Source of the DNA: an uncultured delta proteobacterium
Lineage (GTDB): Bacteria; Desulfobacterota; Syntrophia; Syntrophales; UBA2185
Length of the DNA stretch: 64,000 nt
Assembly (NCBI GenBank): GCA_963695875.1
Contig: CAVOID010000011.1
Location: forward strand, 96,001-160,000
Direction: 5' to 3'
A program made the translations under genes and the position numbers. Position 1 is the stretch's first letter, and every line of letters starts with the position of its first letter. Under the pieces are notes generated by a model. The model did no database searches. It was not told the DNA's origin and saw only the letters and a program-made list of their open reading frames with translations. Shown one piece after another: positions 1-41,091 of the stretch.

Positions 1-2810
1 ATCTTAGCAAAAGAGATATGGAAGTGAGGACGGACCTGAATGAGCTTGAGGCTTCAATCGAAGGGATAAAGGCAGAGGTCCTCGAAAATGAAACGTCCGT
101 TTCAGAATGCCAGGAAAAACTCTATGACATCAGAAACTCGATCAACATCAAGGAACAGGGGATAGAACATCTTAAAGATAAAATAAAAGATATAGCCTCA
201 CAAAAACTGAAAAACCACTCAGAAGTAGAATCACTCCGTTTTAGGCAGGAGAACTTGAGTAAAGAGGCGGAAACCCTAAGCGTATTGGCGGGTAAATCCG
301 GTGAGGAGATTCAAAATGTAAGAAATAGTGTCCTGCAAAACCAGACGGCACTTGAAGAACACAGGGTAATGGCCAAATCCATTCACGTGGAACTTGAGGC
401 AAAGAAGGTAGCGTTTATCGAAATTGTTACGGAAAAGGCGAGGTTAAGAAATACTCTGACCGGTTTCACAAAGGGAATTGATGATATAAGGAAAAGAATA
501 GAGAGGGACATCAGGGAAATAAATGAAAACAAGGAAAGACTTGCTGCTACTCATAAAAATCTCGATCATTTGAGATCAGGGTTAAAAACGGATGAGGAAA
601 CACTCGACCGTCTAGGGGATAAAGGAAATACTGTCTCCGATGAGCTTGAACAAGCGAAATATGATCTGCAGATGATTGACGAAAACATCTCAGAAAAAAA
701 GGAAGCGGCGGGAAGAAAATCGTCGCGGCTTTCGTCCTTGAGAGAGTTACAGGAAAACTATGCCTGGTGCAGTGAAGGTACAAAGTCCATTATGAAAGCA
801 GAGAAGGTCAATAACCTCGAAATACTGCCCCGCGAAACTTTCCTGGGGTTAGTTGCAGATGTTCTCGATGTTCCAAAGGATTACGAAACAGCTGTTGAGG
901 CTGTCCTGGGGGAGAAGCTCCAGTATATAGTGGTTAAAAGTCAGAAAGACGGTGTAAAAGCAATCGACTATCTGAAGAGTTCTTCCTTAGGCAGGGGGAG
1001 CTTTGTCCCCCTTGAAGTCAGAAATCAGGTTCTGGGCTCTGAGGCAGAGCATCTCAAGGGAGCAGTCAGGCTCATTGACATGGTCAATGTTCATCAAGGC
1101 TTCGAAAAAATAGCCGATTATCTGCTGGGGGATGTCTTATTAATACCGAACCTTGTGAGCGGCATTTCCCTCTGGGAGCGAAACGGCTTCAGGGGTACGT
1201 TCGTTACATCGGAAGGAGACGTCATAAATCCACACGGAGTGTTAACAGGTGGAAGCAGAACGAACGGAGAGAAAAGTCTTCTCCGTATTAAGCGGGAGAT
1301 CGCCGAACTGGAAGATGAGGTTAATCAGTTAAATGCATTGCTTGAGGAGGAAGCTGAAAAGAAAAAAGAAGCAGCATCGCTTATACAGCAATGGGAAGAA
1401 GAATTGCTCCAGCTGAGATCGGAAATCCGTGATCTTGAGCTTCGAGTCAACGGCATGCGAAAAGATGTTGAGAGATATGAGTCTGAAATAAAAGGGATTG
1501 AGCAGAGGATAAAAATCATCGATTTCAGTTGTGAGAATCTTCAGTCAGAAGAAGAGAGTACTTTAGAAGAAATCAACAAGATGAAGGAAGCTATCGTCTC
1601 TTCCGAAAGTGAAGAAGAAAAAATCAACCATGCTATATCTTCCCTCCAGGAAAAATGGGATACACTGAGGGTGAAGGTAGAGGAGCAGGAAGAATGTCTT
1701 ACAAGGGAAAAGATTCATCTGGCATCCCTTGAAGAGAAGAGAAATGCCGACCTCAAGGCTATAGATAGATTGGAAGCTGACAGGACAAATACGGTACGTG
1801 AAATCGATGTTAGAATGAAGGATCTAATGCAGAGTGAAAATGAAGTTGAGGATATAACCAATCAAATCTCGGCTGAACAGGACCTCCTTGAACGGCTGTC
1901 CTCGGATCATGAAGATATTGAAGGGATCCTCTCGGAGATGAAGAGATCACAGCAGGAAAGGGAATATTTATTGAGAAACCGGGAGACGGATCTCAGAGAG
2001 GTTAAAAAAGCCCTTGACCAGCTAGTCAAGGAATCCAGTGACCTGGAGATGGAATATCGCGAGTTATCTTTCCAGATGGATAGCTTGAGAAAGGGTATTG
2101 AGGGAAAATACTACATGGATTTGGAGGCATTGGTCCCCGAATTTCAGCGACTCGATGAACCGGACATAAAGGAATTAAGCAGCAAACTCGATAAAAACAG
2201 ACAATTCGTGGAAAATTTCGGTGAAGTAAATCTGTTGGCACTCAGTGAATATGAACAGTTGAAAGAGCGTTTTGATTTTCTTACGGGTCAGGTTTCAGAT
2301 CTTAATGCTTCTATGGATGCACTCCAGAGGACAATAACAAAAATAAATAATGAATCCCGAAAGCGGTTTGCGGAGACCTTTGAGGCGGTCAATAAATGTT
2401 TCAGGGAGGTGTTCACCAGAATATTCCCAGGCGGCAAGGGTGAACTGAGACTGACAGATAGCGAAGACCTGCTGGAAACAGGTGTGGACATCGATATTCT
2501 GATTCCCGGAAAACGTGCGCAGAGTATAAGTCTATTATCCGGTGGTGAAAAGTCCCTCGCTGCCATTGCATTGATTTTTGCTATCCTGTTATATCGACCG
2601 GTGCCCTTCTTAGTCTTAGATGAGGTAGATGCCGCTCTTGACGATGCAAACATATCTCTTTTCAATAACCTTGTTAAAGATATCTCGGCAGATTCTCAGA
2701 TAATCATGGTTACCCACAACAAACGTACCATGGAGGTTGCCGAATATCTGTTTGGCATTACCATGCAAAAACAGGGTATTTCAACCATGGTATCCGTAGC
2801 CCTCAACTAA
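1..2810 (+). CDS. smc: Chromosome segregation protein SMC (5' part outside window)
   Basis: Long coiled coil, hinge region (GLVADVLDVPKDYETAVEAVLG), C-terminal LSGGEK signature and Walker B LDEVDAALD. Confidence 0.97.
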   Translation, partial: LSKRDMEVRTDLNELEASIEGIKAEVLENETSVSECQEKLYDIRNSINIKEQGIEHLKDKIKDIASQKLKNHSEVESLRFRQENLSKEAETLSVLAGKSGEEIQNVRNSVLQNQTALEEHRVMAKSIHVELEAKKVAFIEIVTEKARLRNTLTGFTKGIDDIRKRIERDIREINENKERLAATHKNLDHLRSGLKTDEETLDRLGDKGNTVSDELEQAKYDLQMIDENISEKKEAAGRKSSRLSSLRELQENYAWCSEGTKSIMKAEKVNNLEILPRETFLGLVADVLDVPKDYETAVEAVLGEKLQYIVVKSQKDGVKAIDYLKSSSLGRGSFVPLEVRNQVLGSEAEHLKGAVRLIDMVNVHQGFEKIADYLLGDVLLIPNLVSGISLWERNGFRGTFVTSEGDVINPHGVLTGGSRTNGEKSLLRIKREIAELEDEVNQLNALLEEEAEKKKEAASLIQQWEEELLQLRSEIRDLELRVNGMRKDVERYESEIKGIEQRIKIIDFSCENLQSEEESTLEEINKMKEAIVSSESEEEKINHAISSLQEKWDTLRVKVEEQEECLTREKIHLASLEEKRNADLKAIDRLEADRTNTVREIDVRMKDLMQSENEVEDITNQISAEQDLLERLSSDHEDIEGILSEMKRSQQEREYLLRNRETDLREVKKALDQLVKESSDLEMEYRELSFQMDSLRKGIEGKYYMDLEALVPEFQRLDEPDIKELSSKLDKNRQFVENFGEVNLLALSEYEQLKERFDFLTGQVSDLNASMDALQRTITKINNESRKRFAETFEAVNKCFREVFTRIFPGGKGELRLTDSEDLLETGVDIDILIPGKRAQSISLLSGGEKSLAAIALIFAILLYRPVPFLVLDEVDAALDDANISLFNNLVKDISADSQIIMVTHNKRTMEVAEYLFGITMQKQGISTMVSVALN

Positions 2811-5504: not shown

Positions 5505-5587
5505 ATCTGGGGTTCAGAGACTATTCTCTGGAGGAATACGGTAAGTTGGTCGGGCCGCCACTGTTTAAAACAGTTGGCGGCTTTTTT
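5505..5587 (+). ncRNA. Candidate monovalent-cation riboswitch (DUF1646/Na+-I or nhaA-I/Li+-I-like) with overlapping intrinsic terminator
   Basis: GGGGTT-[hairpin CAGAGA/TCTCTG]-GAGGAATACGGTAAGTTGGTCGGGCCGCCA, then terminator GCCGCCACTGTTT/AAACAGTTGGCGGC-TTTTTT, upstream of a cation/H+ antiporter operon. Confidence 0.65.
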
Positions 5588-7811: not shown

Positions 7812-8189
7812 ATTTACGTTTCGCTTTAATTAATCGGCATTCAGAACTATGGATTCTGGAGTGCTATCAGAGACTACAGTTCAAATGGTAATCTTCACTC
7901 CAATTTCAAAAATGAAAGTTACTGCTTTGTAGGTGTAGCAAATGCTATCCTTTTTATCTCGTTCTTCCTGAAGTCTTGTTTTTCTAATTCAGCCAATATA
8001 TTCATTATTTCATATGGTAAACATTATTTATTCCACAATGAAAGATGCCGGTAGGCTAACCGTCATTATGCAGGAGGTACTCACGATTCTAAGATATTTC
8101 GAGGGTTGTAATCATATTATTCCCGATTGTCATATCACGGCGAATGTTTATAAAATATTATGGGTCATATTTTACTGAAAGGAACGTTT

Positions 8190-11596: not shown

Positions 11597-11910
11597 GAAG
11601 TCCTGACAATAACACGGAGGATAGTTTCAAGAGCATCATCAACGGGTCAGGAATAGGGACATCCTTTACATATTTACATTTGCAAAATGGATCATATGAT
11701 TCTTCATGATCTATCTCAATCCCGCGGGTGAATCAAAACCGCGCCAACAATCCACAATGTAGAGCATTTCAATCGATAATCTTCATTATCCACTTCATGG
11801 TGATGTTCACACTTTGTAGGTGCTATACGTAACAAAATGGTGATTGCAACTTAGGTTTATTAGGTTCATCATCTATCTGTATTTCCTATTGAATCACAGG
11901 AAAGGAGATA

Positions 11911-13080
11911 GTGATGGACCAGATGGCCATAGAAAATTGCAGTATCGTTTCAGCGAAAGAATCCCTGCCGGAATTTGGAATCAATGATCGACAGGCAGGG
12001 TTTCTCCCATCCATTATTTTACCCGAGATCTATAGAGGAAAATCAGGGAAGGTAGTTTATCCTGCGTACACGCAGGAGGCAAAAGCTCTTCACTGGGCAT
12101 TGGATCGCCTTGCAGGCTGGGAATTGCCGGGCAAAGAGCATGTTGAGGAATATTTTCGGAGCATGTATCGGCGGAACTTCCGACCGAGGACATACGCCAG
12201 TGCTCTGACTGCTATTTACGACTTCCTCACCGGTGTCAGGGATTCGGGAAAGACCTGTCTGGAAGAGATCACCAAGCGTGACATTGAAGCTTTTATTGAA
12301 CATGAGCAGGATCGCGGTTTGATGCTATCGACGGTGCGGACGAAACTGCACTGCGTCAATGCTTTTTTGGGTTATGCGATTGACGCAGGGGTTGTCAGCG
12401 CTGATGTCCTGGCAAGAAGGATTCGCCTGAAAAAGCCCGAGACATTGCCGCGGGCCATGGATCCGGACGATGTGAAGCAATTACTCTCCGTTATCGATAA
12501 TCCGAGAGACCGGGCCATGATCATGGTTCTTTTACGGACGGGGATGAGAATCGGCGAGCTGCTCAACACCAAGATGCAGGATCTTCACCTCAGGGATCGC
12601 AGGATTGATATTTACGAGGGAGAAAAGAACCGGCTAGGGACGGGTTGTTTATCTCAGTGATGATGCGATGAGTGCTTTGAAGGCATGGCTCAAGATGAGA
12701 GACGCCTCATAAGGAGTTTCTCTTTTACGCCACAGGGCAGGAAAAGCATGTCCTATAGTACGGCCCATCTTATCTTTGAACAGTATCTCACGAAAGCCGG
12801 TCTTACCCATAAGGGGTATTCCCTTCATGCGCTTCGGCATACCTTTGCCAGTGAGCTTCTCAATGCCGGCATGCGGATCGAGTGTCTTCAGCCGTTGATG
12901 GGGCATACCTCTCTGGATGTGACACGGCGCTATGCCCGGCTCACGGACAAGACCAGGGAGGAAGAGTACTTCAGAGCCATGACGATTATAGAAAGGGGGG
13001 AGATTGATGGCCATTACCGATGCGATCATCAGGTACAGGCGTTTCTTGAAGAGAAGGAACGTCTCACCGAATACCGTTAA
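11911..13080 (+). CDS. Tyrosine recombinase A (indel near 12645)
   Basis: TGMRIGEL, GEKNR, HALRHTFA, MGHTSLDVTRRY. Confidence 0.9.
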
Positions 13081-13901: not shown

Positions 13902-14231
13902 CGAAAGAACAAAACTATGAAATCTTAAACACAACTTAACACATTAATATCAATAGGAAATACAGATTATGTTACGTATAGGTAGGTGAACTAACAACAA
14001 CCCCCGTTTTACCGCTTCCTTCCTATTATTCACGAATCGCCAACCTAAATGAAGATGGAGGGTTTCAACCCGTAATCGTTCATGTTGTTTAATTAATTAT
14101 TATGATATGAATTATAGAAATCTATACTTTCGGTTCTGTGAGAGCTTGGGGCCTCCCAGAGTATCTAGGCGTCTATCTCGGTTGGCGATCCGTAGCCGCA
14201 CCATATATTAAAAACAATAGCAGTTTAAGTT

Positions 14232-14857
14232 ATGAAGATTTTTAATAAAATATTAAGCTATAAAGATAAATATAATCTTAAGAAAAAATTAGTTGAAATA
14301 GAAAAACAAATAGATCACACCTATAAGCCAGCCAAGGATATTTGTTTGTCAATTGTGCAGGCAGCAGAAAATTGTAAGCTGATTTTAAGAACAGACTTGG
14401 GTTTTGAAGATAAAAAGAAAAAGACCTTGCTGAAATGTTGGTATTTTATGAGTACCTTTATTTTTTCATACATCTAACACTAAGATTAGCATTTGGTAAA
14501 TTTACAGAAACACAAATAAAGAAATTGCGAGAATATATGGGGCCGGTAATTGTTGGCGCCGCAATTGATTCATACACAATGGATTGGCCAAAAGATTTGA
14601 AAGAAGGTGTGAAAAAAGAATTTTATGACAAATTAAACCAGGCTGAGCTTGAATATTCAGAGTGCAAGGTTATATTAGACAGGGATAGACCATTTTCCGA
14701 TAATGCTCTGTTTACTAAATTAGCAAAAAATATAACAGAGCTTACGGGACATAATAATAATCCGTTAAAGATAGTAGAAATAATATTAACATCAATAGAA
14801 GAATATGCGAAAATGGATTTGAATAAGTTAGTAGATGAGGCAGCAAACACATTATAG
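14232..14857 (+). CDS. AT-rich hypothetical protein (two overlapping ORFs, probably one gene with an indel near 14420)
   Basis: ORFs 14232..14477 and 14435..14857; markedly low GC. Confidence 0.55.
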
Positions 14858-14973
14858 CAAGGCAGTCGACCGGGCAGCCTCATAGCCGCCGATGAGTTTA
14901 GTCGTGTATTTCAAGTCGTAATCATCGGTAGAATATCATCACATGAATTAAGGACTTGTAGATACCGTTCTTG

Positions 14974-15943
14974 TCAAGCGAAAATTGGCTTATAATTTGG
15001 ATCATACATTTTCCCGGATTTCAGGACTCCAAAGATAACGTGAACCAGTTTCCGCATAATCGCACAGACAATCACTTTCCCATTTTTGCCTTTATCTTTT
15101 AGGCGGTTATAAAAAGCGATCATAACAGGATTGCATTGAATCGATACCAATGCCGGCATGTACAGGGCTTTCCTGAGCCGTGCATGTCCGATTTTGCATA
15201 ATCTGGGTTTGCCTTTAATAGATGATCCTGAGAGCGTTTCCTTCGGTGCGAGTCCGATGAATGCCACCATTTCACGAACATGGTTGAATTTTTCCAGATC
15301 ATCTAATTCTGCCAGGATGTGAGGAATGGTTACCTTACCAATAGCGGGAATAGAATCCAGCAAATCCTTTTTCCGTTTAAGATTTGGATTTTGTCCTATC
15401 AGATCGGCAATTTGTTTTCTGATTTTTTCAATCTCCTGATCCAAATAAGCGATATGTTCTTTGATCAAAAGAGATGACAGATTCATGTGCCGTGCTGATC
15501 CGATTCTTCTCCTGGCTTCGCATGTCGATCAGGCTATCAACCCGTCTGACCAGAGCTCTCAGGGATCTGATCTCCGGTGAAGGTGGAATCCATGCACCTG
15601 GTTTCATAGCCAGACAGAACCGGGCAATCAAGGCGGCATCAAGCTTATCCGTCTTGGTGCGAATCAGTTCACTCTGAGCAAATCCCTTGATCCGGGCGGG
15701 ATTGACAATGCTGACAATGTGGCCGGCTTCATGAAGATAGATCGCCAGATCCTCTCCATAGTTGCCCGTGGCTTCCAGACAGGCATGGACCTTTTGAATT
15801 CCCTGTTTCTCAAGCCAGAGCCTCAACGTCTCAAAACCTTCTGCCGAATTCTTGCAGGTCTTATGTTTTGTCTTCCCATCTACAAGAAGTGCGGCATCGA
15901 ATTTCTGTTTCGCAATATCTATCCCAAGAACCGATACTGACAT
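14974..15943 (-). CDS. IS110 recombinase/transposase (indel near 15475)
   Basis: GIDIAK, CLEATG, KTDKLDA (DEDD RuvC) and GLAPKETLSGSS (Tnp serine motif). Confidence 0.95.
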
Positions 15944-15990
15944 ATAAATACCCCTCTTAAATAAATATTACCCTTCAGTAAAATAGCTTC

Positions 15991-16165
15991 GTTCGAATCA
16001 ACCTTGCAAGTGCAAACTCATTCCCATCTGAGAAGGTTTATGATACCGTACGAGTTATTGAACAAAGCAGTGGGAAGAGGATCTACTCTACAAACCATGC
16101 TCTCTGGCATCAGGTGAAACACAGATTCACTCCTCCCATTTTACCCCGGCGTCCCAGGGTAGTTT
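15991..16165 (-). ncRNA. IS110 bridge RNA (5' hairpin, target-binding loop, donor-binding loop)
   Basis: Hairpin 16141-16162. LTG GTTTCACCT (16112-16120), RTG TTTGTAG (16088-16094), LDG ACGGTATC (16042-16049) and RDG TGCAAG (16003-16008) match the element's own target and donor. Confidence 0.8.
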
Positions 16166-16363
16166 ATAACATTCATTAATCCATAAGAACACAAGGTGTA
16201 GCCGAGCAGTCATCCGGAACTTAATTCAGCAATATACATCGAGCAAAGTTTTAATCATCGCAGTTTATTCGTTCCAATACTTGAAATTTTATATTAACTC
16301 AGTTAATCAGAATCGTTGTCGCTTTGACAGATGTGTGGAGATGAGGAAGAAAAAAATCCTTGA

Positions 16364-16399
16364 GCTGCATATAATGTAGCCGTCGAAGATTATCATTGA
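16364..16399 (+). pseudogene. C-terminal remnant of a HigB toxin
   Basis: AAYNVAVEDYH* (HigB-type DYH end) directly before higA, preceded by an in-frame stop. Confidence 0.65.
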
Positions 16400-16410
16400 A
16401 AAGGATTATT

Positions 16411-16728
16411 ATGAGAACACGAAAAAGACCGCCATCTCATCCGGGATCGATTCTCAAGCTTCATTACTTGGACCCGTCAGGAATCAGCGTTACAGATCTT
16501 GCGAAGGATCTGAGATTGTCGAGAAAAACAGTATCCAAAATATTGAACGAACGTGGCGCTGTGACAACGGATGTTGCCTTGCGGTTGTCCAGAGCGTTTG
16601 ATACTACTCCTGAATTATGGTTGAACCTTCAGAGAAATTACGATCTCTGGCATACGGCGAATGAAACGACTGATTGGCAGGCAATAAGACCTATACTTGA
16701 AAATTGCACATGTAAGCGCATAAGGTGA
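16411..16728 (+). CDS. higA: HigA-family antitoxin (HTH)
   Basis: PPSHPGSIL...LRLSRAFDTTPELWLNLQRNYDLW. Confidence 0.9.
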   Translation: MRTRKRPPSHPGSILKLHYLDPSGISVTDLAKDLRLSRKTVSKILNERGAVTTDVALRLSRAFDTTPELWLNLQRNYDLWHTANETTDWQAIRPILENCTCKRIR

Positions 16729-16857
16729 GATTTAACCGCCGCGCGACCCATTGAAGCGGAGAGCTAATAAGACTGATTAAAAAGATGTATAAATTTTTTA
16801 CTAAATAGAGATGATCAAGCATATCAACCCGGATTGACAATTACGCCTTATCTCATT

Positions 16858-17551
16858 ATGAAAAAATTACTCTGTTTTGCCCATCGCGGCGCGTCAGGTC
16901 ATGAACCGGAAAATACATTACTTGCAGTAGAAAAAGCCATCGTCCTGGGCGCTGACTGGATCGAAGTGGATGTGTATGCCGTGGAAGGTGAGTTGATCGT
17001 CATCCACGATGAAAGGCTCGAACGCACGACAAACGGCACCGGCTGCGTGATGGATAAGACATTGGCATACCTTCGATCCCTTGATGCGGGCAAAGGCCAG
17101 CGCATTCCCACCCTCCGCGAAGTATTCGATTGTGTTGATCGCAGAGTCGGAATAAATGTTGAGCTGAAAGGCCCTGATACAGCCGGTTTGGCAGTTTCTC
17201 TAATTGATGAGTATGTAAGTCATAAGGGCTGGAATTACGATACAGTTTATTTTATCCTCGTTCAGTCACCGCGAGTTAATAAAGGTTAAGAAACTCGATC
17301 CTTACATAAAGATCGGTATTATTATAGGCGGTCGCCACCGACGATATAAAAAATTGACCCGGCAATTGGCCACCTATTCTGTACACCCCCACATTGATCT
17401 CGTGACTGCAGAATTCATAACAGACGCACATCAGCGTGGTCTCAAAGTGTTTGTCTATACAGTAAATCACCCTGACGATATCGCACGATTGGAAGCAATG
17501 GGAGTTGACGGGATATTCACAGACTTTCCCGAACTTGTCACCAAGAGATGA
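16858..17551 (+). CDS. glpQ: Glycerophosphodiester phosphodiesterase (indels near 17250-17350)
   Basis: AHRGASGHEPENTL, IEVDV, IHDERLERTTNG, VELKG, VYTVN, GVDGIFTDFP. Confidence 0.88.
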
Positions 17552-18990: not shown

Positions 18991-19611
18991 ATGGCAAAGC
19001 AAGGCAAGACTGTCCATCTACAAAAAGGAGACGCCCTGTCGGTAACGGATATGCAGAATGATTTTTTGCCGGGAGGGGCTCTTGGCGTTCCTGATGGGGA
19101 CAAGATTATTCCTTATGTGAATCGTGCTGTAGCGTTATTTAAAAAAAACAGCCTCCCGATTTTTTTCACCCGGGACTGGCATCCGCCCGATCATTGCTCC
19201 TTTAAAGACCAGGGAGGGCCATGGCCTCCCCATTGCGTTCAAAATACAGCAGGCGCCGATTTTTCCTCCGAACTGAATATTCCGAAAGGATCCACCATCA
19301 TATCGAAAGGCTCGGAGAAGGATAGTGAGCAATACTCAACATTGGGGGGACGGGATGCAGATGGCAATACGGAGAACGGTCTAATGAAAAAATTAGGGAT
19401 CAGGAGGATATTTATCGCCGGTCTTGCTACCGATTATTGTGTGCTGAATTCCGTAAAGGATGCACTGGCCGAAGGCTACGAAGTTTATGTTCTAACCGAT
19501 GCGGTCCGCGCCGTGGATGTAAACCCGGGTGACGGGGAAAGAGCACTGGAAGAAATGATTCGGGCGGGAGCGAAAACTATAACGTCTGAAGAGCTTCGAG
19601 AAAGAAAATGA
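18991..19611 (+). CDS. pncA: Nicotinamidase/pyrazinamidase
   Basis: DMQNDFLPGGAL, TRDWHP, WPPHCVQ, GLATDYCV. Confidence 0.95.
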   Translation: MAKQGKTVHLQKGDALSVTDMQNDFLPGGALGVPDGDKIIPYVNRAVALFKKNSLPIFFTRDWHPPDHCSFKDQGGPWPPHCVQNTAGADFSSELNIPKGSTIISKGSEKDSEQYSTLGGRDADGNTENGLMKKLGIRRIFIAGLATDYCVLNSVKDALAEGYEVYVLTDAVRAVDVNPGDGERALEEMIRAGAKTITSEELRERK

Positions 19612-20946
19612 ACCTATTAACCAGCCCGCTTTTGACCGATCTTTACCAGTTGACCATGATGCAGGGGTATGTGGACAGGGGTATGCACGAAGAGGCGGTC
19701 TTTGAGTTTTATGTCCGCAGCCTGCCAAAAGCCCGCGGTTTCCTCGTATCGGCCGGTCTTGAAACGCTGCTTACATATCTGGAAGGTTTGCGATTCTCTG
19801 AAGAGGAACTAAAATACATTGCAGGTACGGGCAGGTTTTCGAAAGCCCTCTTGGATTACCTGGCAAAATTCCGCTTCCGCGGTGATGTTTACGCCATGCC
19901 GGAGGGGACGGTCTTTTTTTGAAAATGAACCTGTGGTGCGCGTTGTCGCCTCCATGCCGGAGGCGCAACTCATCGAGACCCGCCTGATTAACATCCTGCA
20001 TTTCGAGATCCTTATTGCAAGCAAAGCGGCCCGTTGCATCTTAGCAGCGGACGACAGGGCCATTCTGGTTGATTTCGGACTGCGACGGGCGCATGGTGCT
20101 GAAGCAGGCCTCCTGGCGGCCCGTGCCTCATACATTGCCGGATTTGCAGGGACGTCAACCGTATTGGCAGAATCCCTCTTTGGGATACCGATATCCGGAA
20201 CGATGGCCCATTCCTATGTTGAGGCTCATGAAAATGAATTGGAGGCGTTTCTAAGTTTCGGCGAGTCAAATCCTAATAATACAACCCTTCTTATTGATAC
20301 GTACGATGTCCACAAAGGTGCAGAAAAAGCAGTTGAGGCGGCAAAAAAACTAAAGGAAAGAGGAATAAATGTTCGCGCTGTGCGCCTCGATAGCGGTGAT
20401 TTGCTTGCCCTGTCAAAGGATGTCCGCCAGATCCTTGACCGCGGTGGTTTGACAGACGTCCGTATCTTCGCCAGCGGCAATCTTGATGAATACCTCATCT
20501 ACGATCTAATGTCCCAGGGAGCGCCGATTAACGGCTTTGGCGTAGGCACGAAGCTCGACACCTCCGAAGACGCGCCATACCTTGAATGTGCCTACAAACT
20601 AATGGAGTATGCGGGCACGCCCAGATTCAAAAAATCACAGGGAAAAGCCACCATCCCGGGACGCAAACAGGTCTTTCGCGAGTTCAAAGATAAAATGATG
20701 ATCAGGGATATTTTGACTACTGAAGGAGATGAGGCAGAGGGTGTCCCTCTTATTGAGAAGGTAATGAGCGGCGGCCGGAGGATATCCTGGCCTAAGGGTT
20801 TAAAAGAGATTGCAATGTATACCCGATCACAATTGAAATCTTTGCCTTCGCATTTCAAGGCCCTGGAAACAAAACCCGCGTATCCCGTTAAAATCTCTCC
20901 CGCGTTATCCAGACTCAAAAAAGAAATCGAGCGGCAGGAACGTTAA
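19608..20946 (+). CDS. pncB: Nicotinate phosphoribosyltransferase (indel in the T-run near 19915)
   Basis: LLTDLYQLTM, DFGLRRAHG, GTMAHS, IDTYD, VRLDSGD. Confidence 0.95.
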
Positions 20947-38069: not shown

Positions 38070-38723
38070 ATGTTTGAAGAACTACGGAACAAGATAACAA
38101 GTGAAGAGTTTGACTATCAAGCCCTTCTGAACTGCCTTCGGGAATATGACCGACCACGTGATAAGATCACGGATTTGCTGAAGCAGGGTGCCATTATACG
38201 TATAAAGAAGGGTATCTATGTTTTTGGAGAGAGATATAGACGACGACCCTTTTCCAGAGAGGTTTTGGCAAACATGATCTACGGACCTTCTTACATATCC
38301 CTCGATTATGCCTTGCATTACTATGGCATGATTCCGGAACGCGTTGAGGCTGTAACATCGGTCACCTGTAGCCGGGGCAGGCGCTTTTCCACCCCCGTCG
38401 GTCTTTTCATGTACCGTGGTATTTCCATGAATGCCTATCAGATCGGCATTGATCAAGTGGTACTCGATAGGGGGCGCACTTTCTTAATTGCAGTCCCGGA
38501 AAAGGCTCTGTCCGACAAGATCCATGATGACCGGGGAACGAGTGTTCGAACCCAGACGGACATGAGGGCATATCTGCTGGACAACTTGCGGATTGATCCT
38601 GAAAGGCTGGAAAAGCTAAACACCGACATGCTCTCTCTGATCGCCGACCGTTACCGGTCCCGGAAGATACGGCTGCTAAGCGATTTGCTTCGTAAGCTGG
38701 GTGGGAGGAAGAACAATGAATGA
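38070..38723 (+). CDS. AbiEi-like type IV antitoxin
   Basis: IIRIKKGIYV, ANMIYGPSYISLDYALHYYGMIPE, AVPEKALSD. Confidence 0.88.
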   Translation: MFEELRNKITSEEFDYQALLNCLREYDRPRDKITDLLKQGAIIRIKKGIYVFGERYRRRPFSREVLANMIYGPSYISLDYALHYYGMIPERVEAVTSVTCSRGRRFSTPVGLFMYRGISMNAYQIGIDQVVLDRGRTFLIAVPEKALSDKIHDDRGTSVRTQTDMRAYLLDNLRIDPERLEKLNTDMLSLIADRYRSRKIRLLSDLLRKLGGRKNNE

Positions 38724-39582
38724 AGTAATTGCCCGCATGCTCGACCGGTACGAGAGTAGAAGTGTGGAGGACTATGTGAGAGCCCTTCGGGAGATACTGC
38801 AGGAGATTGCACTGCTCGGCCTCTGGCGGAGCAAATTTTTTGAGAAGGCTGCCTTTTACGGGGGCACAGCTCTCAGGATTCTTTACGGGATTGACCGTTA
38901 TTCGGAAGACCTCGATTTCTCGCTGCTCAAGCCAATGCCTGATTTCGATATTTCGCGATATATCAGTGCCCTGGAGCGTGAGGTCCGGTCGTTTGGGTTC
39001 GAGGTGAGTGTGACGGTAAGAGAGAAGAATGCAGAAAGTCCAGTACAGTCGGCTTTTCTGAAAGCTGACACCCTGAAGCACCTGTTAGTCATAGAAACAG
39101 CAGAAGACATTGCCAGGCAGATCCCCCGCGGACAGGTCATGAAAATTAGAATCGAGGTCGATACTGACCCGCCAATGGGGTTTGACACTGAAAACAAGTT
39201 TCTCCTTCAGCCGATCCCCTTCTCGGTCAGAACATTTGTCCTTTCTGACCTATTCGCCGGCAAAATGCACGCCGTTCTGTGCAGGCAATGGAAGAGTCGG
39301 GTTAAGGGCCGTGATTGGTACGACCTCGTCTGGTATGCCTCGCACCATCCGCAACTACATCTCGACCACCTCGAACAGAGGATGATCCAGAGTAGACACG
39401 CGAAGGAAGGGGACCGCCTGACCAAGGAGAAATTCTTCTTACTGACATCAAACGCAATTGATAAACTGGATATAAATCAGGTCAAGAAGGAAGTGGAACC
39501 TTTCGTGAAGAACCCTGATGCTCTGCAAGTTTGGTCGAAGGAGTTCTTCAGGGATGTTGTCAAAAGGATTGTGCTGGTCTGA
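38716..39582 (+). CDS. AbiEii/AbiGii nucleotidyltransferase toxin
   Basis: AFYGGTALRILYGIDRYSEDLDF, GKMHAVL, KGRDWYD; overlaps the antitoxin stop. Confidence 0.92.
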   Translation: MNEVIARMLDRYESRSVEDYVRALREILQEIALLGLWRSKFFEKAAFYGGTALRILYGIDRYSEDLDFSLLKPMPDFDISRYISALEREVRSFGFEVSVTVREKNAESPVQSAFLKADTLKHLLVIETAEDIARQIPRGQVMKIRIEVDTDPPMGFDTENKFLLQPIPFSVRTFVLSDLFAGKMHAVLCRQWKSRVKGRDWYDLVWYASHHPQLHLDHLEQRMIQSRHAKEGDRLTKEKFFLLTSNAIDKLDINQVKKEVEPFVKNPDALQVWSKEFFRDVVKRIVLV

Positions 39583-40787: not shown

Positions 40788-40998
40788 AAGCTGTGGCGAA
40801 CTGAGCCTGATGAACACGCATATAAGCCGTCTGCAAAGAGGACCGGCAAAATACGTTGAGGAATCAGGAAGAGGATGTGTCAGTAAAAAAGATTCCCAAC
40901 CAAATCAAAAGGCAGGGTCAGAATGGCACTGCCTTTCTTATTGAGCATTTCAAATCGTAATCGTCGGTATAATCTCATCACACAAATTATTGATAAGT

Positions 40999-41091
40999 AG
41001 ATACTGTCCAGCCATGTGGCCGAAGCCATTCAGTACAGGAACCTTGATAGAAAGATGATTTGATGAAAAAGAAGTATGTCATTTCATGATT
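40999..41091 (+). repeat. comM 3'-end repeat, copy 3 (shorter)
   Basis: Encodes [20 protein letters not shown] with synonymous changes, plus a related downstream flank. Confidence 0.92.

Follow-up and report, generated by a model that had tools for sequence, protein, structure and literature searches.

A probable bridge RNA-encoding insertion sequence of the IS110 group in a Syntrophales genome, with guides that vary in step with its insertion sites

Does the non-coding left end of an insertion sequence specify an RNA whose loops designate both the element's ends and the site into which it was inserted? This question is raised by a locus in an uncultured bacterium of the Syntrophales (assembly GCA_963695875.1, contig CAVOID010000011.1, positions 96,001 to 160,000), a stretch of 64,000 nucleotides (nt) that we refer to as the window and in whose numbering coordinates are given. 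An insertion sequence of 1,236 bp, both flanking CT cores counted, lies on the minus strand at 16195-14960. Our analysis indicates, with a probability of roughly 0.9, that the element is a member of the IS110 group that combines a DEDD/serine recombinase with a bridge RNA gene in its left end. This reading is carried by the anatomy of the element, by homology of the protein as well as the donor loop to their IS621 counterparts, by a conserved fold with compensatory changes, and by covariation between guides and flanks. Taken together with the interpretation of an earlier model-made reading of the same DNA (hereafter the initial annotation), these results allow each step from the ends of the element to its target to be considered in turn.

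The ends have the layout that is characteristic of the group, namely a long non-coding left end, a short right end, and no long terminal inverted repeats. On the left, 250 nt of non-coding sequence extend up to the ATG at 15943, and on the right, 16 nt separate the transposase stop codon from the right-hand CT. In place of a target duplication there is a 2-nt CT core on both sides, while unoccupied copies of the repeat in which the element resides have a single CT. The boundaries are the following.

16194..16195, minus strand: left copy of the CT core, where homology among the three copies in the genome begins
14960..14961, minus strand: right copy of the CT core, from base-by-base reading and alignment of the copies
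16187..16193, minus strand: right donor (RD) TGTGTTC, the first bases of the element, invariant in 40/40 aligned left ends except for one G-to-A change
14962..14968, minus strand: left donor (LD) ACGGTAT, the last bases of the element, from reading of the sequence

The genome to which the window belongs (G000; 16 contigs, 82.6% complete) contains the element at three places. Besides the window copy, there is a second copy on contig C6 (copy 2), which is 91% identical and has an intact gene of 322 amino acids (aa), and a 78-nt match on contig C7. When these copies are aligned, homology starts and stops exactly at the CT cores. In addition, contigs from four public sequencing runs, which at 85-99% likeness represent relatives and not the strain of the window, cover 29 of 30 bins of the stretch compared, and their likeness drops at 14958 and 16198/16199, which corresponds to the element's ends extended by the AC and CAC that are conserved in the target. 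The match on C7 (C7:38244-38323; about 1503-1580 of locus L003) is a fragment in which the first 75 bases of the left end are fused to the right half of the target repeat, the deletion running from the first base of the left target guide to the right-hand CT. We considered that this fragment might be the product of recombination at an internal CT, an idea that was rejected because the junction retains two bases (GT) that such an event would remove.

The guides were read by reference to IS621 of Escherichia coli, an IS110-group bridge recombinase with a 177-nt bridge RNA (PMC11208160, PMC11208158; these papers and the preprints cited below are represented here by excerpts). According to the same excerpts, a left guide reads in the same sense as the left half-site and core, and a right guide is the complement of the core and the right half-site; once strands have been exchanged, the two bases that come after each right guide pair with the other DNA at its positions 6-7 (PMC11208158). 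In the window copy, the corresponding features are these.

16196..16202, minus strand: left target (LT) GCTACAC, the left half of the interrupted intergenic repeat
16112..16120, minus strand: left target guide plus core, GTTTCACCT, 7/9 to GCTACAC-CT
16088..16096, minus strand: right target guide GGTTTGTAG, including the AG that would pair with the core; complement of CT-ACAA, then U opposite G
16086..16087, minus strand: target-loop handshake guide, AG in the window copy and AT in copy 2, placed according to the excerpt of PMC11208158
16041..16049, minus strand: left donor guide ACGGTATCA, 8/8 identical to the right-end LD
16003..16008, minus strand: right donor guide TGCAAG, complement of CTTGTG, 6/6 with two wobbles
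16001..16002, minus strand: donor-loop handshake guide GT, which would pair with LT positions 6-7 (AC)

The initial annotation had reconstructed the target as GCTACAC-CT-ACAAG and the circle-junction donor as ACGGTAT-CT-TGTGT, and both hold base for base (16202-16187 and 14968-14955, minus strand). Its guides recur as well. In loop 1, GTTTCACCT matches at 7/9 and TTTGTAG (16094-16088) is the complement of CTACAAG with one U opposite G. In loop 2, ACGGTATC at 16049-16042 agrees 8/8 with the right-end bases, and TGCAAG is complementary with two wobbles.

Copy 2 provides an internal comparison. It is inserted at GTTTCAC-CT-ACTTACC, and its left guide, again GTTTCACCT, matches the left flank 7/7, with the agreement continuing to 8 nt plus CT. 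The right guide of this copy, GATAAGTAG, is the complement of CT-ACTTATC and agrees with the right flank at 6/7. Specifically, the right guides of the two copies differ precisely where the right flanks differ (AA vs TT at +3 and +4). The proposal that the element prefers a site of about GTTTCAC-CT-ACAA is borne out by this insertion, where the guide has changed to match, by covariation in 49 relatives, and by GCTACAC-CT-ACAAGTCC, a variant of the repeat that stands unoccupied in a relative.

The relatives were obtained from a scan of one genome per species, in which 338 stretches encode related proteins; the best 80 of the 338 were used as 76 loci, mostly from metagenome-assembled genomes (MAGs) of Syntrophales, Syntrophaceae, and Smithella. 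Left ends were taken from 53 loci and right ends from 57. Guides were readable in 50 of the 53, the failures (L004, L006, and L040) having unrelated sequence upstream of the gene, and removal of a duplicate insertion (L032, the same as L031) left 49 loci. Among these, the left target guide occurs in twenty variants. Across 47 loci, LT and the left guide agree at 243 of 329 positions, compared with 218.5 ± 4.3 after permutation. Right target (RT) positions 1-5 agree with the right guide at 173 of 215 positions in 43 loci (156.5 ± 3.4 when permuted). Neither value was reached in 20,000 permutations. When all seven right positions of the 43 loci are included, there are 211/301 matches (permuted 196.2 ± 4.1; 12/20,000). 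The donor-loop handshake guide behaves similarly with respect to LT positions 6-7, with 88 of 92 matches in 46 loci (permuted 82.6 ± 1.0; 21/20,000); GT goes with an LT ending in AC in 40 loci, and AT goes with AT in three of three. For the target-loop handshake guide, the 49 relatives have AT in 25 cases, which pairs both bases, AG in 23, which is also the state of the window copy and pairs one, and AA in 1.

The informative cases represent, for the most part, separate insertions with flanks that differ. For example, in L018, L028, and L029 the left guide ends in T, three different flanks all end in T, and the handshake guide is AT, not GT. In L017, the guides are altered on both sides of the core and the site is altered to correspond, while L031 has a 7/7 match on a variant guide. 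Furthermore, all three of the elements with a right guide of the copy 2 type adjoin ACTTA. The tabulated flanks of the 49 loci agree with the guides beyond permutation, and the sites are not unrelated to the guides. At the level of the family, the loop-flank matches proposed for the window copy exceed chance (0/20,000 permutations for LT and for RT 1-5).

The predicted RNA consists of three modules, which are followed by a short T-run.

16143..16160, minus strand: 5' hairpin; its sequence varies among relatives, and the hairpin is retained in both own-genome copies
16072..16137, minus strand: target-binding loop module, closing stems 16137-16122 paired with 16085-16072
15986..16068, minus strand: donor-binding loop module, closing stem 16068-16060 paired with 15994-15986
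15980..15983, minus strand: T-run directly after the donor-loop closing stem, conserved in 40/40 aligned left ends

For the 185 nt from 16162 to 15978, the predicted structure of a 5' hairpin and two stem-closed internal loops has an energy of -58.4 kcal/mol (z = -2.48), a stability that 3 of 200 shuffles equalled; for the complete 250-nt left end, z = -1.73. An RNAalifold consensus built on 40 left ends, from 38 relatives in addition to the window copy and copy 2, has 41 pairs; of its 1599 cells, 99.0% are paired, and in 8 of the pairs both sides have changed. These values were reached in 0/500 shuffles, and in a control in which the partners were slid by 1-3 columns, pairing fell to 39.5-52.3%. 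The target-loop stem (helix 1) accounts for 14 pairs, 5 of them changed on both sides, with 98.5% of cells paired, and the donor-loop stem (helix 3) for 9 pairs with 99.7% paired. Prediction for the IS621 left end gives the same three-module fold; in the window element, the left end that folds in this way spans roughly 215 nt. The initial annotation had proposed just such a check on folding and covariation of IS110 left ends, and its 5' hairpin and two internal loops stand; its length of about 175 nt for the non-coding left end does not, as only the structured part, at about 175-195 nt, is of that order. The T-run at 15980..15983 may mark the 3' end of the RNA, judging from its position. Rfam covariance models gave no match up to E = 1 in window positions 14000-17200, which probably reflects a library without a matching family and not a lack of RNA. 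The only Rfam match in the window is an unrelated nhaA-I riboswitch (RF03057) at 5510-5562 on the plus strand, with 42.9 bits against a gathering score of 37.

The recombinase gene of the window copy is divided between two overlapping reading frames (15943-15428 and 15486-14974).

15428..15943, minus strand: N-terminal part of the transposase (DEDD/RuvC-like domain; PF01548, E = 2e-27), an open frame that stops early
14974..15486, minus strand: C-terminal part of the transposase (Tnp domain with the serine motif; PF02371, E = 2.4e-24)
15467..15476, minus strand: frameshift, a stretch with one extra base in alignment with copy 2 and the relatives' contigs

The contigs of all four public runs omit one base at 15472-15475. 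It is possible that the frameshift is an assembly error, since other genes of the window are also split at homopolymers; none of the public runs contained more than 0.40 of the sampled words. The other split genes bear on whether it is real. They include a nicotinate phosphoribosyltransferase gene (19608-20943) that is broken at seven consecutive T (19914-19920), a tyrosine recombinase gene (11911-13077) in two pieces, and a half-length GDPD domain at 16834-17286, all of which are either pseudogenes or homopolymer assembly errors.

Family assignment is clearer from the protein of copy 2. It scores 243.2 bits against NF033542 ("IS110 family RNA-guided transposase"; cut-off 140) and matches over its full length both the IS621 transposase (8wt6_A, E = 1.4e-84) and that of ISCro4 (9t56_A, E = 5.7e-84). 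The residues aligned to the catalytic Asp/Glu/Asp/Asp and Ser of IS621, whose roles are given in the excerpt of PMC11208158, are all retained. At the DNA level, the transposase gene had no match in E. coli genomes, and IS621 was reached through a plasmid protein search, which returned an annotated IS621 (H28) with 46.1% identity over 98% of the length. One such copy (L098) was confirmed as IS621 by 732.6 bits to 8wt6_A over 1-326. With these matches, and with guides at the positions of the validated IS621 guides, the assignment of the element to IS110 is upheld. As assembled, the window copy could move only with the intact protein of copy 2, whose donor guides and ends are those of the window copy.

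Comparison with IS621 reveals a strong resemblance. Both have a two-domain recombinase, a CT core, and a long left end in which a 5' hairpin precedes the target and donor loops, and both have targets in a dispersed intergenic repeat containing CT-AC. Moreover, the donor loop of IS621 aligns base for base with that of the window element. IS621 copy L098 has the ends ACAGTAT-CT-TGTAT and the guides ACAGTATCA and TTTGCAAG-GT, where the window element has ACGGTAT-CT-TGTGT with ACGGTATCA and CTTGCAAG-GT; at the aligned place, the right donor guide is TTGCAAG in IS621 and TGCAAG in the window element. The IS621 donor quoted in the initial annotation, ACAGTAT-CT-TG, is the one found in L098. The elements differ in the left target guide, which is GTTTCAC in the window element and ATCGGGC in L098, and in the right end, which extends about 107 nt beyond the stop codon in L098 but only 16 nt here. 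They also differ in the right target guide, which comprises 4 bases in IS621 according to the excerpt of PMC11208160, whereas here pairing appears to be longer, with RT positions 3-4 covarying with the guide. Finally, the host of the window element is a Syntrophales MAG, and the element is known from sequence alone. ISCro4 (9t56, a name taken from the title of the PDB entry) was compared by protein only, and its likeness lies in the full-length recombinase match. IS622, a name that comes from a search listing, is counted with ISCro4 among the nearest described elements. Our search of the full-text literature on IS110 together with Smithella or Syntrophus, a scope outside which ISfinder and the supplements of PMC11208160 fell, returned no description of the window element.

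Two further features concern expression.

14972..14977, minus strand: TTGACA, candidate -35 box overlapping the TGA stop codon (14976-14974)
16183..16188, minus strand: TCTTAT, candidate -10 hexamer with TGT before it, separated by 17 nt from the right-end TTGACA at the computed junction

The overlap of TTGACA (14977-14972) with the transposase stop codon, which the initial annotation had described as a potential junction promoter, was found as described. In 51 of 57 right ends TTGACA, perfect as a -35 hexamer, sits 10 nt from the core, and IS621 copy L098 has the same arrangement of the two candidate boxes, -35 in the right end and -10 in the left end (TTGCAG, 17 nt, TATTAT). By analogy with IS621, the element would excise as a circle, and its joined ends would form a promoter from TTGACA, a 17-nt spacer, and the TG-extended TCTTAT. 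This promoter would drive synthesis of a bridge RNA about 175-195 nt long, whose donor loop, with ACGGTATCA and TGCAAG, would hold the joined ends ACGGTAT-CT-TGTGTTC, and whose target loop, with GTTTCACCT and GGTTTGTAG, would hold a site of the type GTTTCAC-CT-ACAA. Once the first strands have been exchanged, the two bases that follow each right guide would pair with the other DNA, and recombination at the CT core would insert the element with CT left on both sides. Transcription, the ends of the RNA, binding, and catalysis are presumed in this scheme from the example of IS621. A joint of the circle type, in which the sequence goes back from one end to the other, was not among the joints listed for the contigs of the four public runs. 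It is also conceivable that integrated copies use a -35-independent promoter, for which the conserved TGTTATAAA at 16171-16163 could be a candidate.

Several observations weigh against the bridge RNA interpretation. Donor guides and ends are nearly invariant among the relatives, which leaves the donor loop without a covariation test, and in the RNAalifold consensus some of the donor-guide bases are paired internally (helices 4 and 6). The loci come from elements that are akin to one another, so that the permutation tests overstate their independence. The window copy lacks the intact recombinase frame that copy 2 possesses. Its TG-extended candidate -10 hexamer is weak, without A at the second position, and a promoter and terminator scan of the integrated element, in which both hexamers were required, returned 0 sites; this is what a junction promoter would lead one to expect, and it is not positive evidence for one. 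Contigs from RNA libraries cover the element, though this does not demonstrate transcription. Finally, guides and targets match loosely in nature. LT agrees with the guide at 7/7 in 5 of the 47 loci, at 6/7 in 11, at 5/7 in 21, at 4/7 in 8, and at lower values in 2, which places 31 of 47 at 5/7 or worse, and the guide disagrees with right position 3 in 14 of 43 loci. Such looseness contrasts with the screens of IS621, which favored perfect matches (PMC11208160, as excerpted).

The mismatches are not evenly distributed. They cluster at left positions 1-4, while left positions 5-7 and right positions 1-2 nearly always match, and from these sequences the natural specificity of the lineage looks like T.CAC-CT-AC plus partial matches. 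According to an excerpted preprint (10.64898/2026.08.31.748434), a substrate can recombine even when it matches only half of the bridge RNA, and this may bear on the loose matching seen here. For the window copy, with its two mismatches, the history of the site is informative. The sequence GCTACAC-CT-ACAAGTCC was found unoccupied in a relative (L094), and GCTACAC-CT-ACAAAGC was found in the window's own genome; the mismatches thus lay in the target and did not arise by later decay of the flank. To this extent, the two mismatches described in the initial annotation are sustained. That the element's own RNA tolerated them is plausible, because 21 of 47 relatives also stand at 5/7.

Alternatively, with the same element and the same mechanism, the window copy could have been placed by the bridge RNA of a sister element acting in trans, or its guide could have drifted after insertion, in which case the two mismatches would say nothing about tolerance. 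We consider this possible, although somewhat unlikely. The left target guide of one relative (L011), GCTACACCT, would match the window site 7/7, twenty guide variants occur among the 49 loci, and the excerpt of PMC11208160 states that IS621 bridge RNAs act in trans. Five copies in one MAG (L022, L023, L030, L042, and L044) share one target loop, yet their five flanks all differ and match it at 4/7 to 7/7. However, GTTTCACCT is present in both own-genome copies, and no copy with GCTACAC was identified in G000, although that genome offers only three places and is 82.6% complete. Furthermore, 5/7 is the most common value among the relatives, so that mismatched insertion seems to be the rule and not a special case.

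Whether the RNA alone sets the choice of target is a question that arises from the repeat in which the element lies. All three own-genome copies and most of the relatives sit in a dispersed intergenic repeat of about 70 nt, which consists of a left block of weak conservation that ends in T.CAC, the CT core, and AC.A.TC followed by a distal conserved block. In the window, it is represented as follows.

14909..14959, minus strand: right half of the target repeat, with ACAAGTC, GATTAC at +37..+42 (14923-14918), and TTGAAA at +46..+51 (14914-14909)
7867-7945, 11755-11833, and 40935-41002 (approximate), minus strand: unoccupied copies of the repeat, from the profile search

A profile of reconstructed sites found 23 places in G000 at E < 0.01, three of which are occupied by the element or a fragment of it. 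The genome contains at least 20 unoccupied copies of the repeat, and there are more in relatives, which have it at as many as 7 places per genome. At C11:261440, which is unoccupied, the left target is perfect. No common hairpin was predicted in 20 unoccupied target repeats, and no Rfam family matched the repeat. Integron attC sites and sigma-54 promoters were dropped by eye as identities for the repeat because their consensus motifs did not fit. Near window position 41010-40998 (approximate, minus strand), the seven bases before the CT of one repeat copy resemble an IS110 right end, in a variant of the IS621 type; there is no element beside them, and they may be a scar or a product of chance. 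G000 also contains a single Y1 transposase gene, of the type associated with REP (repetitive extragenic palindromic) sequences, which has no established link to the repeat. Degenerate frames of about 40 aa with stops lie beyond the target repeat (L002 about 2790-2960 and L003 about 1640-1760, reverse strand), and resemble what we take to be the C-terminal motif of IS91-type rolling-circle transposases.

At 31 occupied sites, both distal motifs are present in 23 and at least one in 29. In contrast, both were found at 3 of 24 TTCACCTAC sites and 13 of 184 CACCTAC sites in G000, and at 205 of 200,000 random positions. The distal block is conserved, and its spacing is fixed at 36 nt in the three own-genome copies. 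Based on these patterns, target choice might be set only in part by the RNA. The bridge RNA would then read only a short, mismatch-tolerant sequence of about T.CAC-CT-AC, and the rest of the specificity would come from the distal GATTAC-nnn-TTGAAA at +37..+51, or from a shape that it confers, independently of the RNA and 3' of the target. A structural target determinant has been reported for ISPpu10 of Pseudomonas putida in an excerpted preprint (10.64898/2026.03.19.712850), where all or most insertions likewise lie in copies of one dispersed intergenic sequence. That determinant is a GC-rich stem-loop on the 5' side, whereas the conserved block here is 37-51 nt to the 3' side with no hairpin predicted. 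We regard a second determinant as improbable. The same picture would arise by survivorship, if insertions elsewhere are lost and those in neutral intergenic repeats remain, or by guide pairing beyond the 9-11 nt that were counted. In addition, the background comes from one genome while 30 of the 31 occupied sites come from others, and the 20 unoccupied copies share no predicted hairpin.

The least tenable alternative, that the loop-flank matches are coincidental and that the left end is merely a 5' untranslated or promoter region of the transposase gene, could appeal to the short matches (7/9, and 7/7 with a wobble) and modest fold scores (z of -1.73 for 250 nt and -2.48 for 185 nt) of the window copy alone, but it is so improbable as to be dismissed, being already contradicted by guide-flank covariation in the family, by compensatory changes in the stems, by the sequence homology of the donor loop to the experimentally validated bridge RNA of IS621, and by the right target guide of copy 2, which is altered in step with its flank.

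The surroundings of the window copy add some context. An orthologous empty site was found in none of the 40 relatives examined, where matches to the flanks comprise only a higA-like gene and the target repeat, which makes up the initial 52-63 nt of the right flank; the 166 nt of adjoining left flank had no match in the same 40 relatives. The higA-like gene, which encodes a helix-turn-helix antitoxin (16396-16725, plus strand), shares 78-95% identity with its counterparts from several genera of the family. A higB-like gene comes after it in 8 of 9 loci of relatives; the window's gene has no higB-like partner, and unrelated sequence runs from it to the insertion sequence instead. Elsewhere in the window, an AbiEi/AbiEii toxin-antitoxin pair is found at 38070-39579 on the plus strand (PF13338, weak; PF08843, E = 4.9e-31).

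The interpretation of this element as a source of bridge RNA in the initial annotation is supported but not surprising after the work of Durrant et al. (2024), who, in the excerpt of PMC11208160, predicted bridge RNAs in 85.7% of IS110-group elements and relied on the same covariation of guides and flanks. The recombinase is one orthologue among thousands that have been catalogued, and little is gained in practice unless the distal block turns out to determine specificity; if it did, it would be a 3'-side determinant that is unlike the stem-loop of ISPpu10 in both place and kind. What the locus does demonstrate is that the guides of a bridge RNA can be read by eye in raw sequence and then verified with the copies in the same genome and with relatives. 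It also provides a natural example of two copies in one genome whose right target guides differ in step with their flanks. More generally, guide-target matching in this lineage is loose, with 5/7 being typical, which is relevant to the off-target behavior of bridge recombinases.

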